Of a stretch of 64,000 bases of DNA, positions 5,132 through 10,465 are shown piece by piece. The notes beneath the pieces are model-generated. The model was not told where the DNA came from. It made no database searches and saw nothing but the letters and a program-made list of their open reading frames with translations. The stretch is from Shigella phage Ag3, in sequence record FJ373894; one strand, written 5' to 3'. How positions within the stretch are numbered: the stretch's first letter is position 1; each line of letters starts with the position of its first letter. The translations under genes and the position numbers were made by a program.

Positions 5132-5524
5132 ATGGTTATCGTTGACGAAAGCAATCTGATAGAGTATGCCCTGAGGCATTACATTGTTGATTCTATCTCA
5201 CGGGATGAGTTGCTGACAGACATACAGCGAATTTCGCTAATTAACCAATCATTGAAGAGATTTGTGCCTGGCAAGAGTCCAAGGCTCATATTGAATCAGC
5301 TGATCACTCTCTTCAATACGTTCGAAGCAGAAGCAGTCTGTCGTATGCTTGTGTTGAAAACGGATAAGTCTCAGCTTCCGCGCCTCAAGGCTGCTTTGTT
5401 GACGTTAGGCGTATGGCGTGATGATTTATGTTCCGGTTCATACGAACCAGATAACGAGCTATTAATGGCTCTGAACAACGATTTGGGCGAGTGGAGGAAA
5501 CCATGCCAACAATCACTGTATTAG
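5132..5524 (+). CDS. hypothetical protein
   Basis: 130-aa ORF; weak RBS; no recognisable motif. Confidence 0.4.
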   Translation: MVIVDESNLIEYALRHYIVDSISRDELLTDIQRISLINQSLKRFVPGKSPRLILNQLITLFNTFEAEAVCRMLVLKTDKSQLPRLKAALLTLGVWRDDLCSGSYEPDNELLMALNNDLGEWRKPCQQSLY

Positions 5525-6312
5525 TAGCACCGGAAGTTGTTCGCAACAAACCGGAAACCGAGCGTCTGCACACCGTGACAGGCACTGCCAAGGGTTGGGA
5601 AAAGACCAGTCTTAACCAAGACCCTGACGAGATCCTGACCGAGTGTAAAGGCCTGGATGCACTTCTGACCAAGAGCAATCTTCAGGCTGATGGCGTGACC
5701 AAAGTTGATCCAACCAAGCCTATCGGCTTCGAGATCTCTTACGAAATCCACGACCCAAGCGCCGTGCTGACCACTGGCCTGACCATCACCCCTGCGACTG
5801 CTGGTGGTGAAGTCGGTCAGGTTGTTGAACTGCTGGCGACCGTCGCTCCGGCGAACGCGACCTACCAGGGTGTCAACTGGTACTCTGGTGACATCACCAA
5901 AGCTGTACACATCGGCGGTGGTAAATTCAAGCTGCTGGCTCCTGGTTCTGTGACTGTGTACGGTGTTACCATCGAAGGTGGTCACACTGACTCTACCGTC
6001 ATCACAGTGGCGGGTGCGCTGGCTCTGTCTACTGATCTGGCCGCTTCTCAGGATGTGACAGCAGGTGCTGACGCAACCTTCACCATCGCCGCTACAGGCG
6101 GCACTACCCCATACACATATGCTTGGTACTTCTCTGATGTCCCTGGCGGTGAAGGTGTGGTGATCGATGCTGGCGCTAACGCCACTGCTGCTACAGCAAG
6201 CCTGGTTATCACTGCCGTTGATGCCGCCGACGAGGGTGAGTACTGGTGCGTTGTTGAAGACGCCGACGGCCACTCTGTGACCTCCACCCGTTGTGAAATG
6301 GCTGTGGTCTAA
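5503..6312 (+). CDS. Ig-like domain protein (Big_2-like plus second Ig-like domain); possible virion decoration protein
   Basis: 269 aa from ATG 5503 (GGAGGAAA upstream); Big_2-like segment VVELLATVAPANATYQGVNWYSGD...TVITV; second Ig-like segment with TYAWYF and DEGEYWCVVED, as in phage Hoc-type proteins. Confidence 0.5.
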   Translation: MPTITVLVAPEVVRNKPETERLHTVTGTAKGWEKTSLNQDPDEILTECKGLDALLTKSNLQADGVTKVDPTKPIGFEISYEIHDPSAVLTTGLTITPATAGGEVGQVVELLATVAPANATYQGVNWYSGDITKAVHIGGGKFKLLAPGSVTVYGVTIEGGHTDSTVITVAGALALSTDLAASQDVTAGADATFTIAATGGTTPYTYAWYFSDVPGGEGVVIDAGANATAATASLVITAVDAADEGEYWCVVEDADGHSVTSTRCEMAVV

Positions 6313-6633: not shown

Positions 6634-7146
6634 ATGCAATCCATGATCAAACGTAAAGTAGAAATCTCCCTGAATGCCCATGTTGAAATGATCCAGCAGC
6701 TTGTGTCTGACGCATATGAGATACAAAAGGATCGCCAATCGAAGGGAGGCGTGATGGACCCCACCTGTCCCGGAAACATACTACACTATCGCATGCTGCG
6801 CTGGACTGGGCATACGGCTGCTCTGAAGAAACTGCTTTCTAAAAGATTCCAGGCCGAAAACGATGCCTATGTGTTTGGCGTCTTCCATAATTCGCGTGAA
6901 CGCGATGCGCTCTTCCATCCTTCCCGCAACCCACAGACAGGCGAAGAACTGCCTATCCCTGATGTCGACAAGAAAGAGAGCACGGCCACCATCGCTCATT
7001 TCATGGGCACGGATATCGATAAAGCAAACATCATCGTGTTCTCTGATACACTTCATGATCCGAAACGCTTGGCTGCCGCCCATGAAATGTTGCGTAATAG
7101 CCGCAGTGCTTTCACAAATTTGACTTTAGTAGTGTTTCTGGGCTAG
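6634..7146 (+). CDS. hypothetical protein
   Basis: 170-aa ORF; GAGGA upstream; TATAAT at 6585-6590 about 45 nt upstream. Confidence 0.45.
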   Translation: MQSMIKRKVEISLNAHVEMIQQLVSDAYEIQKDRQSKGGVMDPTCPGNILHYRMLRWTGHTAALKKLLSKRFQAENDAYVFGVFHNSRERDALFHPSRNPQTGEELPIPDVDKKESTATIAHFMGTDIDKANIIVFSDTLHDPKRLAAAHEMLRNSRSAFTNLTLVVFLG

Positions 7147-7195: not shown

Positions 7196-7393
7196 ATGTA
7201 CAAGTTCAGAATTAACAGAGAACGTAATTCGTTCAAGTTCGGTGTAGTCGCTGGAGTTTGTTTGTTCCTGGCGCTCGAAAGCGTTGTCAGCCTGCTTACA
7301 ACATCACAAATGCAGGTGACTCGTTACCTACTTGCCATTATATTTTCTGCTGTCGGTTTACTCTGCTCCTATTTGGGGTGTGTGAAGAAATAA
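7196..7393 (+). CDS. small membrane protein
   Basis: 65 aa, AGGAGG RBS; two hydrophobic segments (VVAGVCLFLALESVV, LLAIIFSAVGLLCSYL). Confidence 0.4.
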   Translation: MYKFRINRERNSFKFGVVAGVCLFLALESVVSLLTTSQMQVTRYLLAIIFSAVGLLCSYLGCVKK

Positions 7394-7435
7394 ACTGGCT
7401 GCACACAGCAATACTTTGATTTGAGAAACTACATC

Positions 7436-7924
7436 ATGATGCTGTTAATGAGCGTTCCACAGAACAAGATGACCCCTGAAACAGAGGGTAAGAATCACTT
7501 CAACATCTACAGCCAGAGCCAAACGGAACTCGGGCGCTTCCTCTCGCATTTTGCCCATCATCCAGTGACTACCTATGAGCACGGCGTGTTCAACTCCATG
7601 GAAGGCTACTGGTATTGGCTAAAGTACAGGGATGACAACCTGCGCTTGCTCGACGGCTACGAAGCCAAGCAATATGGGCAGGGGTTGGCGGCCACTCGCA
7701 TCGCTGTCCTTGATCCATCATCCGAAGAATTCAAGCGCGACATTCTGTTTGCCACCAGCATGAAACTCCAGACAATGCCCGACCTGCTGAAGATCAGATT
7801 GGCGTACAGTCGACTCCCTCTGATCCATGCATACGTTCGGAACGGGAAATATAGTTTTCAAAACTCTATGGACTTTATCATAGACCACATTAATCGTCTC
7901 CGCATACAAGGAACTTTGAAATGA
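7436..7924 (+). CDS. NADAR-domain (YbiA-like) protein, putative ADP-ribose/N-glycoside hydrolase
   Basis: Segment IYSQSQTELGRFLSHFAHHPVTTYEHGVFNSMEGYWYWLKY matches the YbiA/NADAR core pattern (FYS.S..G.FSNF...P.....G..F.SxEhYFQ..KF) recalled from E. coli YbiA; about 162 aa, typical domain size. Confidence 0.5.
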   Translation: MMLLMSVPQNKMTPETEGKNHFNIYSQSQTELGRFLSHFAHHPVTTYEHGVFNSMEGYWYWLKYRDDNLRLLDGYEAKQYGQGLAATRIAVLDPSSEEFKRDILFATSMKLQTMPDLLKIRLAYSRLPLIHAYVRNGKYSFQNSMDFIIDHINRLRIQGTLK

Positions 7925-8502
7925 AATTTCTACATACCATCATTGGCACTTCTTATGATTGCACTGCTCATTGCCCTGACCGTTCGTCTGTGTTCGTCCT
8001 AGGTAAACTGGTAGAAGAATTGTGTGAGCTGTCTGATGTCTACAATGGCCTGGCGGCGTCGGAACCCCTGAACGGTGAAATCGCTGATGTTATCATCTCT
8101 GCGATTGATTTGCTATATGTCGTGGAGTTTAACCCTCACCAAATCAATGGTTGCATGAACAAGGAAGAAATGATCGATTCTGTTATCTTCCGTCTTGCAG
8201 AATTGGGGGCGACAGAATCAAAAGATGTGGAGAGCCACTGGTTCCATGTGGGTGATCTGAAACCGGAGAAGCATCTGGCGCTGGCCTTGCACTATCTAGG
8301 CAGAACAACCCGCCTTTTGAACCAACCATACCGTTCAGAAGACGATCTGGCGTACCTGGTGGACAGGATCATCACCTTCGCGGCCAAAATGGCTTGCGCT
8401 GTTGGCATCGTCAACTCTGTGTCTCAGTCGGACACGCGAGTGAAGGTGGAACACGCTATTGAACACAAAGTTGAAAAGTGGCGCACTAAATTTGGTCTAT
8501 AA
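7921..8502 (+). CDS. putative MazG-like nucleotide pyrophosphohydrolase
   Basis: 193 aa; ATGA overlap with upstream gene; acidic helix pattern LGKLVEELCELSD...GEIADVIISAIDLL resembles MazG-type EExxE motifs; weak. Confidence 0.3.
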   Translation: MKFLHTIIGTSYDCTAHCPDRSSVFVLGKLVEELCELSDVYNGLAASEPLNGEIADVIISAIDLLYVVEFNPHQINGCMNKEEMIDSVIFRLAELGATESKDVESHWFHVGDLKPEKHLALALHYLGRTTRLLNQPYRSEDDLAYLVDRIITFAAKMACAVGIVNSVSQSDTRVKVEHAIEHKVEKWRTKFGL

Positions 8503-8551: not shown

Positions 8552-10465
8552 ATGTCTGATAAAATTGATATTGAACGCAAGTACAAGAAGCTCACGCACG
8601 TCGAGCATATCCTCCTTCGCCCAGAGCGTCATCTGGGCAGCATCCGTTCGTCTGTTGGTACGGTGTGGGTGTACGACCCAACCAAAGACCAAGTCATTTT
8701 CCGTGACAACTTTGAGTACTCCCCCGCCCTGATCAAACAGTTTGATGAAATCATCACCAACTGTGTTGACCACAGCAAGACGCCTGAGGGTAAATCCCTG
8801 ACGGAAATCACTGTCACGGTTTCCCCGATGAACGGTCAAATCATCGTTGCCGACAACGGGGGCATCCCTGTTGTGAAGCACGGTGTTACCAACGAGTGGT
8901 TGCCTGAGATGCTCTTCGGCTCCCTGTATGCAGGCAGCAACTTCAACGACGAAGACGAAGAGTACAACAACCAGAAGTCTGGTGGCCAGAACGGTGAAGG
9001 GGCTTCGCTCGTCAACGTGTTCTCCAAATGGTTCCGTGTTGCTACCAGTGATGGCAAGAAGTCTTATGCCCAGCTGTTTGAAGACAACATGAGCAAGAAG
9101 TCTAATCCGGTCATCAGCAATACGCCGAAAGAGTTCGGCACCACCATCGCCTGGATTCCTGACTATGCTCGCCTGGGTGTCAAAGGGCTTGACCAGAACA
9201 ACCTGCTGATGATCTATCGCCGCGCGTTTGAAGTGGCTGCGTGTAACCCGCGCCTGAAGGTTGTGCTGAACGGGAAGCAAATCCGGATTGACCGCTTTGG
9301 TCACTTCGTTGATTACTTCCATGCTGGTTCCGCTGTTGATGAATCTGGTGAATGGTCGGTTGCTGTAGCCCCTTCATCCGGTACGTTCATGCACGCATCA
9401 TACGTGAACTCTATTGCCACCCACATCGGTGGTCCTCACGTTGATTATGTCGCCGACCAGATCGTGGCTGCGATTCGTCCTCAGCTGGTGAAGAAGTTCA
9501 AGACCGAGCTGAAACCTGCCGTGATCAAGAACCACATGTCCTTGTTCATCGCCGCCGACATCAACAACCCGCGCTTTGACAGCCAGACCAAGGAGCGCAT
9601 GACCACTCCTGTAAGCCAGTTCGGTACGTCGTACAAACCGAGTGACAAACTCATCCGCAAGGCGCTTGAGTTCGTTATGGCTGGTCTGAGCAAAGAACTG
9701 GCTTCCCTGCGCAATGAGCAGGATGATGCTGAGTTTGAAAAGGCCAAGAAGGATATCAGCAAGCGGGATTATCGTGAGATTGAGAAGTATTACCCGGCGA
9801 CCGCCCGTGGTGACCGCAGCGGATGCTCCCTGTTGCTGACAGAGGGTGATAGCGCCTCCAATCCTATCCTGAACGCCCGTGACACCAAAAAGATCGGATT
9901 GTTCCCGCTTCGTGGTAAGTTCATCAACTGCCTGAACGCCCCGCGCACAAAGGTGATGAACAATGAAGAGTTCAAGAACCTGTGTACGATTCACGGCGGC
10001 GCAGTGCCCGGTCAGCCACTTGACATCAGCCGCTACCCACAGACTGTTGTGGCTACCGATGCGGACGATGACGGCATTCACATCCGTGGGTTGTTGATCA
10101 CCCTGTATTGCACCTACTGGCCGGAGTACGTCCGTCAGGGCAGGCTGAAGCTCCTGCGCACCCCTTACATGCGTGTATGGTGTGGTAAGGTGATGCATGA
10201 GTTCATGAACAACGCCGAGTATGAGGAGTTCCTGAAGACGCCTGATGCCAAGAAGATCACGAAGAAGAAATATCTGAAAGGTCTTGGCGGTAACAGCACT
10301 GAAGACTTCAAACGTATTCTAAACAACCTGGATGCGTATACTACGACGGTCACGCTGGACGATGGCTACCAACAGTCACTGAAGAATGGCTTCGGTGATG
10401 AGGCCGCCGATTACCGCAAAACCTGGTTTAGCGATGTTTGCCTGTTTGAAACTGAGGATGAATAA
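8552..10465 (+). CDS. DNA topoisomerase II large subunit (T4 gp39 plus gp60 equivalent, fused), GHKL ATPase plus TOPRIM
   Basis: 637 aa; GyrB-like ATPase motifs (NCVDHS, IVADNGGIP, GGQNGEGAS) and TOPRIM EGDSASNP; size fits fused gp39/gp60. Confidence 0.9.
   Translation: MSDKIDIERKYKKLTHVEHILLRPERHLGSIRSSVGTVWVYDPTKDQVIFRDNFEYSPALIKQFDEIITNCVDHSKTPEGKSLTEITVTVSPMNGQIIVADNGGIPVVKHGVTNEWLPEMLFGSLYAGSNFNDEDEEYNNQKSGGQNGEGASLVNVFSKWFRVATSDGKKSYAQLFEDNMSKKSNPVISNTPKEFGTTIAWIPDYARLGVKGLDQNNLLMIYRRAFEVAACNPRLKVVLNGKQIRIDRFGHFVDYFHAGSAVDESGEWSVAVAPSSGTFMHASYVNSIATHIGGPHVDYVADQIVAAIRPQLVKKFKTELKPAVIKNHMSLFIAADINNPRFDSQTKERMTTPVSQFGTSYKPSDKLIRKALEFVMAGLSKELASLRNEQDDAEFEKAKKDISKRDYREIEKYYPATARGDRSGCSLLLTEGDSASNPILNARDTKKIGLFPLRGKFINCLNAPRTKVMNNEEFKNLCTIHGGAVPGQPLDISRYPQTVVATDADDDGIHIRGLLITLYCTYWPEYVRQGRLKLLRTPYMRVWCGKVMHEFMNNAEYEEFLKTPDAKKITKKKYLKGLGGNSTEDFKRILNNLDAYTTTVTLDDGYQQSLKNGFGDEAADYRKTWFSDVCLFETEDE

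Follow-up and report, generated by a model that had tools for sequence, protein, structure and literature searches.

The NADAR-like locus

The DNA analysed here is a 64-kb stretch of Shigella phage Ag3 (FJ373894), referred to below as the window. By megablast, the Ag3 region is 99.6% identical to Shigella phage vB_SboS_Gloob (OL615011.1), an Agtrevirus of the family Ackermannviridae; the coordinates of the two coincide, and the window is the left end of the Gloob genome. A preliminary description of this DNA had placed an open reading frame encoding a NADAR-like protein between the rII and the topoisomerase genes (Table 1). The reading frame is real and its coordinates are correct: it runs from ATG 7436 to TGA 7922-7924, and the same 162-aa form is used in Ag3 and in most homologues. 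Its counterparts are Ag3 gp010 and GLOOB_7, the latter deposited in GenBank as 'hypothetical protein'. On the + strand, the genes are ordered rIIA, rIIB, a hypothetical gene, an Ig-domain 'tail' protein, a small hypothetical gene, a 'histone-like' gene, a 65-aa putative membrane protein, the NADAR-like gene, a MazG-like gene and the topoisomerase II large subunit. GenBank starts the Gloob and ChubbyThor proteins at TTG 7421 (167 aa), whereas Ag3 and most homologues start at ATG 7436 (162 aa); on the upstream side, ATG 7436 has only a weak GAGA.

The stop codon of the NADAR-like gene overlaps the start codon of the MazG-like gene, which suggests translational coupling of the two. The MazG-like protein matched PHROG 1247 (E 7.6e-36), with no Pfam match and no PDB match by sequence. 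The abutting pair was kept in all Ackermannviridae loci examined and was absent in distant relatives of the NADAR-like gene; neither flanking gene accompanies the NADAR-like clade outside the Ackermannviridae. No ADP-ribosyltransferase gene was found at the window locus, where the neighbours are the histone-like, small membrane, MazG-like and topoisomerase genes. The preliminary description had put the gene in an early region. Our promoter and terminator scan gave counts not above those of shuffled sequence, so we make no claim on expression timing, and a literature search found no transcriptome bearing on 'early' expression.

Several neighbours deserve a remark of their own. The 'histone-like' gene (PHROG 4164) had weak matches to WWE_5 (E 0.022) and IHF-alpha (E 0.014), and its family profile retrieved nothing from the PDB. 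A role for this protein as an ADP-ribose reader was considered and rejected, as the WWE_5 match was supported neither by the PDB profile search nor by the appearance of the alignment. Among Ackermannviridae, this gene is far more variable (27-97% identity) than the NADAR-like gene (49-98%). The 65-aa ORF has two hydrophobic stretches and belongs to PHROG 4835; tblastn found it in the five loci nearest to the window, including that of Limestonevirus LIMEstone1, and it was missing where the identity of the NADAR-like gene was about 60-67% or less. The 273-aa 'putative tail protein', whose Klebsiella phage counterpart is annotated as 'structural protein with Ig domain', has rII, replication and further non-structural genes around it at this end of the genome, an odd position for a structural gene.

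Table 1. Genes, codons and motifs at the NADAR-like locus (positions in the window)
Feature	Position	Strand	Remarks
Ig-domain 'putative tail protein'	5491-6312	+	273 aa
'Histone-like' gene	6634-7146	+	PHROG 4164
65-aa ORF	7196-7393	+	putative membrane protein
Alternative start	7421..7435	+	5 additional codons if the GenBank TTG start is correct
NADAR-superfamily CDS	7436..7924	+	162 aa + stop; 19.0 kDa, pI 9.07; divergent, His-type, single-domain
H21-F-N23-I-Y25-S26, first-strand motif	7496..7513	+	aligns with YbiA 'INFYS'
F35-L-S-H-F39	7538..7552	+	equivalent of the NADAR 'LSNF' motif
Glu56 codon, GAA	7601..7603	+	aligns with AdfN E36, YbiA E48 and P. nicotianae NADAR E43 (catalytic Glu)
Lys63 codon, AAG	7622..7624	+	aligns with AdfN K43, YbiA K55 and P. 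nicotianae NADAR K50 (phosphate-binding Lys)
Lys78 codon	7667..7669	+	'AK..G' motif common to NADARs; Lys in 191/199 relatives
Lys110 codon	7763..7765	+	in helix aligning with YbiA 'AKF' motif; Lys in 196/199 relatives
His131 codon, CAT	7826..7828	+	directly before predicted strand 132-135; His in 195/199 relatives
Stop/start overlap, ATGA	7921..7924	+	TGA of NADAR-like gene, ATG of MazG-like gene
MazG-like NTP pyrophosphatase	7921..8502	+	193 aa; PHROG 1247
Topoisomerase II large subunit	8552-10465	+	3' of MazG-like gene

Assignment to the NADAR superfamily

Direct scans of the NADAR-like protein against the Pfam, NCBIfam and PADLOC libraries were empty even at a cut-off as loose as E<=1; its sole library match was PHROG 652 (E 1.2e-53), a group with unassigned function. 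Precomputed Pfam tags were likewise found on 0 of 48 homologues drawn from a collection of 5.8 billion proteins. The Pfam NADAR model PF08719 did not reach its gathering score on the protein and touched the domain in one relative only (E 0.0089). Similarly, PF08010 (Phage_30_3; gathering score 36 bits) had no match on the protein itself; in two relatives it reached 27.0 and 17.9 bits on this domain, both below gathering (best E 4.4e-6); by this cut-off, the NADAR-like protein is not a PF08010 member. Family models built from characterised NADARs were somewhat more informative. A YbiA-family HMM matched the domain in one relative, and with a locally built AdfN-family HMM the NADAR-like ORF was the sole pick in the six-frame translation of the window (16 bits, E 2.6e-4). 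A second NADAR paralogue was not found by the YbiA, AdfN or clade HMMs, either in the window or in the remaining genome.

Profiles were then built for YbiA relatives, for relatives of T4 gp30.3/AdfN and for the NADAR-like clade, and were compared by hhalign. The clade aligned with the AdfN family over its full length (residues 18-162) with a probability of 96.3% and E 1.9e-9, and with the YbiA family over the N-terminal two thirds only (75%, E 2.4e-5). As a calibration, the AdfN and YbiA families aligned at 97.7% and E 2.5e-12 over almost the entire gp30.3, and the control comparison of the clade with an unrelated alignment gave 0.07% and P 0.7 with no aligned extent. Searched against the PDB, the family profile had a NADAR, 8BAU, as its top sequence match, at a non-significant E of 0.27. 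By these profile alignments, the clade is separated from AdfN about as far as AdfN is from YbiA, which makes any transfer of substrate from AdfN uncertain.

The NADAR-like protein has the YbiA-like fold of the NADAR superfamily and is homologous to its members in profile-profile comparison; together with the catalytic residues described below, this places it in the superfamily. The preliminary description had claimed that the product fits the YbiA/NADAR core pattern, with an HHpred/Pfam search among the checks and a missing NADAR profile match among the grounds for refutation. Taken literally, that refutation holds for the curated Pfam model, to which the protein has no match at this threshold; the pattern claim itself stood on fold, profile-profile homology and catalytic residues. 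Because the fold and profile-profile evidence agree, we keep the negative Pfam, NCBIfam and PADLOC scans as a caveat and not as a refutation of membership.

Active-site residues

The core of the NADAR-like protein begins near residue 18, a position matched in the alignments by residue 1 in AdfN and by residue 15 in YbiA. Conservation was examined in 199 aligned relatives, and for some positions 196 of these have a residue in the column. In the first-strand motif, N23 and Y25 were found in 196 of the 196 relatives with a residue there (199 aligned), S26 in 194 and H21 in 187. The glutamate at the catalytic position, E56, was present in 196/196 on the same basis, and its counterpart position in the E. 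coli C7 protein is E88. Seven residues further on, the NADAR-like protein has K63 at the place of the phosphate-binding lysine (K95 in the E. coli C7 counterpart). This column carries Lys or Arg in only 36 of 199 relatives, the Ackermannviridae proteins included; a basic residue (K/R) occurs somewhere within columns 63-66 in 158. Both the glutamate and the lysine matter in T4, where E36A and K43A each abolish AdfN function (PMC11257639).

The residue in the last strand distinguishes the NADAR types: it is Glu in the YbiA type, Asp in the DarG1 type and His in the phage gp30.3 type (PMC11543638; PMC11125620). H131 stands at the place of this charged or polar catalytic residue in the NADAR-like protein and aligns with H123, which is invariant in the gp30.3/AdfN family; the Glu of the YbiA type is thus replaced by His. 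Taken across the 199 relatives, the invariant or near-invariant positions are E56, H131, K78, K110, N23, Y25, F52 and W59. In the structure of the P. nicotianae NADAR, the diphosphate of ADP-ribose is contacted by residues of the D-x-x-W motif (PMC11543638); the NADAR-like sequence has no counterpart of this motif, which is also missing from T4 AdfN.

Distribution, fusions and neighbours of the clade

Among 1.84 billion representatives, a profile search found 1,906 clusters at E<=1e-3, and tblastn gave matches in 574 phage records; the clade is mostly phage-borne. The gene was present in every Ackermannviridae record that appeared in these searches. Other carriers include many jumbo phages of Erwinia, Ralstonia, Pectobacterium, Klebsiella and Salmonella, Vibrio phages of roughly 157 kb and Pseudomonas phiPMW. 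Bacterial genomes carry the clade rarely: a pattern-seeded scan of 185,579 species genomes located 17 loci, several of them on megaplasmids or phage-like MAG contigs. An antitoxin origin could not be traced in these 17 loci, many of which are phage-like.

Sixty of the 574 records were sampled for annotation, and all homologues in them were hypothetical save one 'virion structural protein' (Klebsiella phage PP889479.1, 102229-102714). Elsewhere, the homologue of Salmonella phage FrontPhageNews (Kuttervirus; QPX74118.1) was deposited as 'putative N-glycosidase', and a cluster look-up of one fused relative gave a JGI name that appears to be a YbiA-family label. The NADAR resemblance has been glimpsed by some annotators and the label has not been propagated. 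Several Dickeya Limestonevirus records (e.g., KY942056.1, 7036-7449) have shortened versions of 108-119 aa; that of JA15 matches residues 25-162 only, so that the HxNxYS strand would be missing. These could reflect a mis-called start or a genuine truncation.

Many members of the clade are fused to other domains. Among 71 multidomain relatives, DUF4326 was found in 13, Macro in 10 and DUF488-N3a in 5, along with the SLOG-type domains DNA_processg_A (9), YAcAr (6) and YpsA (3); a metallophosphatase domain is also among the partners, and at least one multidomain relative has, in another part of its chain, a canonical NADAR domain as well. Architectures combining Macro, DUF4326, NADAR and SLOG have been described for phage NAD/ADPr systems (PMC9503650). 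The clade is thus associated with ADP-ribose-processing domains. Neighbours were scanned at 48 distant viral loci (131 neighbours) and at 16 loci in bacterial assemblies (75 neighbours). Those in distant phages were heterogeneous: ADP-ribosylglycohydrolase (two loci), Macro, NAPRTase, cREC, RNA ligase and SLOG, as well as the nucleotide-metabolism genes DHFR (three loci), thymidylate synthase, ribonucleotide reductase, thymidine kinase and 5-hmdU DNA kinase. An ADP-ribosyltransferase partner was not found among the best 25 families listed for each scan.

Outside the window, on the - strand of OL615011.1 (82780-85295), lie adjacent genes for a NAPRTase-family protein (PF04095, E 1.8e-31) and a PRPP-synthetase-like protein with Pribosyltran and Pribosyltran_N domains. 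In composition, the pair resembles NARP1, a phage NAD+ reconstitution pathway that draws on free ADP-ribose. If it is NARP1-like, the pair could consume the product of a NADAR hydrolase.

Proposed function and alternatives

We propose that the NADAR-like protein is most likely an ADP-ribosyl N-glycohydrolase that counters DarT1-like DNA ADP-ribosylation in the manner of AdfN, and we put the probability of this reading at roughly one half. The preliminary family assignment is right, and the counter-defence function suggested with it is plausible, with strong published precedent. During infection, the phage would make a small, basic, single-domain His-type NADAR enzyme, which would bind ADP-ribose attached N-glycosidically to a nucleic-acid base and hydrolyse the bond; going by precedent, the expected substrate is guanine N2 on phage DNA that a host toxin of the DarT1 type has modified. 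Glu56 and His131 would flank the distal ribose, while Lys63 with Lys78 and Lys110 would hold the diphosphate. Cleavage would set ADP-ribose free and leave a template that can again be replicated, and the gene would in this way act in counter-defence as AdfN does.

The precedents are close at hand. DarTG1, to which phages such as RB69 are sensitive, is neutralised by members of three separate phage NADAR lineages: T4 gp30.3/AdfN, the Bas32 NADAR and the Bas60 NADAR (PMC11257639). Every NADAR assayed so far hydrolysed guanine-ADP-ribose in vitro (PMC11543638, PMC11125620), and some also hydrolysed cytidine-ADPr. In T4, a NADAR against DarTG1 is paired with a macrodomain against DarTG2, which offers a simple reading of the Macro fusions in the clade. 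However, de-ADP-ribosylation in vitro need not mean protection in vivo: in one study, T4 gp30.3 and YbiA failed to rescue DarT1 toxicity (PMC11125620). An AdfN-like function is also opposed by the missing match to a curated model, by the variable equivalent of K43 across the clade and the lack of a D-x-x-W counterpart, and by the absence of an ADP-ribosyltransferase, among the families listed, next to the clade members examined. In the literature, published experiments included, we found nothing connecting Ackermannviridae with NADAR or DarTG.

The fusion partners of the clade would suit the processing of small ADP-ribose molecules equally well. The enzyme may act on low-molecular-weight derivatives such as signalling nucleotides, toxic ADPr phosphates or RNA-repair products, and not on modified DNA, and would then serve, as one of several phage tools, to clear host signals based on ADPr. 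Fusions to Macro, SLOG (YpsA, YAcAr and DprA-like), DUF4326, DUF488 and metallophosphatase domains point in this direction, and Iyer, Burroughs and Aravind predicted small-molecule ADPr processing in phages from such architectures (PMC9503650). The cREC, RNA ligase, NAPRTase and SLOG genes near distant relatives are in keeping with it, and so is the pair of NAPRTase-family and PRPP-synthetase-like genes, which could recycle free ADP-ribose. On the other hand, the NADAR activities reported in the papers that we consulted concern base-linked ADP-ribose on DNA or RNA and the ribosylamines of the riboflavin pathway, and none of these papers describes signalling-nucleotide cleavage. Fusions of Macro with the NADAR-like domain are equally consistent with the dual reversal of thymine- and guanine-linked ADP-ribose. 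On balance we regard a small-molecule substrate as a tentative alternative, possible and rather unlikely.

A related and more doubtful view is that the whole PHROG 652 clade is a NADAR-fold enzyme for another ADP-ribose linkage, be it an immune signal, ADP-ribosylated RNA or another base, working with its Macro, SLOG, DUF4326 and DUF488 partners. The Ackermannviridae enzyme might then feed free ADP-ribose to the NAPRTase and PRPP-synthetase-like pair, rebuilding NAD+; if true, this would be a new branch of phage anti-NAD/ADPr immunity.

The conserved overlap with the MazG-like gene could instead point to a YbiA-like N-glycosidase of nucleotide metabolism or damage control, which would, for example, remove an unwanted ribosyl or deoxyribosyl nucleotide together with the coupled pyrophosphatase in a phage that hypermodifies thymidine. 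The overlap is kept in all Ackermannviridae loci examined, nucleotide-metabolism genes often adjoin distant relatives, YbiA is itself such a glycosidase (PMC9503650), and the Kuttervirus deposit carries this very name. However, the last-strand Glu of the YbiA type is His here, as in AdfN, and the D-x-x-W motif is lacking; the link to MazG is confined to one lineage; the clade occurs in many phages of other groups, jumbo phages included; and nucleotide-metabolism neighbours are common in large phages anyway. Such a role seems to us improbable. A non-catalytic protein of NADAR fold, for instance one that binds and thereby blocks a host ADP-ribosyltransferase or is packaged into the virion, is very improbable: it would accommodate the single 'virion structural protein' record, the packaging of NADARs proposed for some myoviruses (PMC9503650) and the variable equivalent of AdfN K43, but that record stems from automated-style annotation for which we found no experimental support, the NADAR-like protein retains all three key residues of AdfN, and the conservation of E56, H131, K78, K110, N23, Y25 and W59 at NADAR active-site positions argues for catalysis.

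Should the AdfN-like reading prove true, every Ackermannviridae phage examined and many jumbo phages would carry an unannotated ADP-ribosylation-reversing enzyme. The family includes phages for biocontrol or therapy against Salmonella, E. coli, Shigella, Klebsiella and Dickeya, and this reading would suggest why they might resist DarTG1-type defence; one member of the family, Kuttervirus S117, has already been engineered by CRISPR-Cas9 counter-selection. The reading would also bring a third NADAR clade, of the His type and beyond the T4 group, under the AdfN paradigm and give PHROG 652 a clear functional label. That orphan phage NADARs counter DarT1/DarTG1 has been known from publications since 2024, and phage NADAR fusions to Macro, SLOG and DUF4326 were catalogued in 2022; since the concept is already published, the gain lies in annotation and scope and not in principle. 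A widespread 'hypothetical' phage gene receives a concrete predicted function, while the concept stays as it was. In addition, the clade offers a natural experiment on NADAR specificity, with its variable Lys, its macrodomain fusions and the hypermodified thymidine of the phage DNA.

Comparison with known NADAR systems

E. coli YbiA (PDB 2B3W; PF08719) differs in several respects from the NADAR-like protein. Their sequence alignment is limited to the N-terminal two thirds; YbiA has Glu125 followed by D130-x-x-W133-G, whereas the NADAR-like protein has His131 and no such motif; and D130, W133, G136 and G137, all invariant in YbiA, are without a counterpart in its C-terminal sequence. Since Glu125 and D-x-x-W are both missing, the NADAR-like protein is not of the YbiA type. 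Moreover, the YbiA gene is one of the housekeeping genes of bacteria and lies in an operon under LexA control (PMC11125620). DarG1, the BC4488-type antitoxin associated with DarT1 (PDB 8BAT), has Asp in its last strand, is encoded beside DarT1 and has an N-terminal extension proposed to bind ssDNA (PMC11543638). In contrast, the NADAR-like protein has His131 and a core from about residue 18 onwards, and its gene has no transferase gene close by. As it lacks an adjacent toxin, a last-strand Asp and an N-terminal extension, the protein is not a DarG1 antitoxin.

The NADARs of Bas32 (T5-like) and Bas60 (Vequintavirinae) are alike in being orphan phage NADARs outside the T4 group, independently recruited, and both were shown to counter DarTG1 (PMC11257639). 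The difference, by description only, is that they were found by DELTA-BLAST conserved-domain searches and hence resemble canonical NADAR models; they were placed near archaeal and bacterial NADARs (PMC11257639). No T5-like or Vequintavirinae phages were visible among the 60 records sampled of the 574 tblastn matches to our clade.

AdfN (anti-DarT factor NADAR; T4 gp30.3; PF08010) is the most similar of these. The two are basic phage proteins with one domain and a length of about 150-160 aa (17.1 kDa and pI 8.97 for AdfN, against 19.0 kDa and pI 9.07); E56, K63 and H131 match E36, K43 and H123; and both lack the D-x-x-W of YbiA and finish in a short hairpin and a terminal helix. The differences are that PF08010 is silent on the NADAR-like protein and sub-threshold in two relatives, that Ackermannviridae DNA carries modified thymidine and not hydroxymethylcytosine, and that the clade has invariant motifs of its own (HxNxYS, EGYWYW and LPxxHYY) as well as the variable Lys position. 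In cells, AdfN activity depends on the DNA modification of T-even phages. Furthermore, the activity of AdfN is experimental, that of the NADAR-like protein predicted. Taken together, the NADAR-like protein is best described as belonging to a third NADAR clade, of the His type and carried mostly by phages, with AdfN as its nearest characterised relative.
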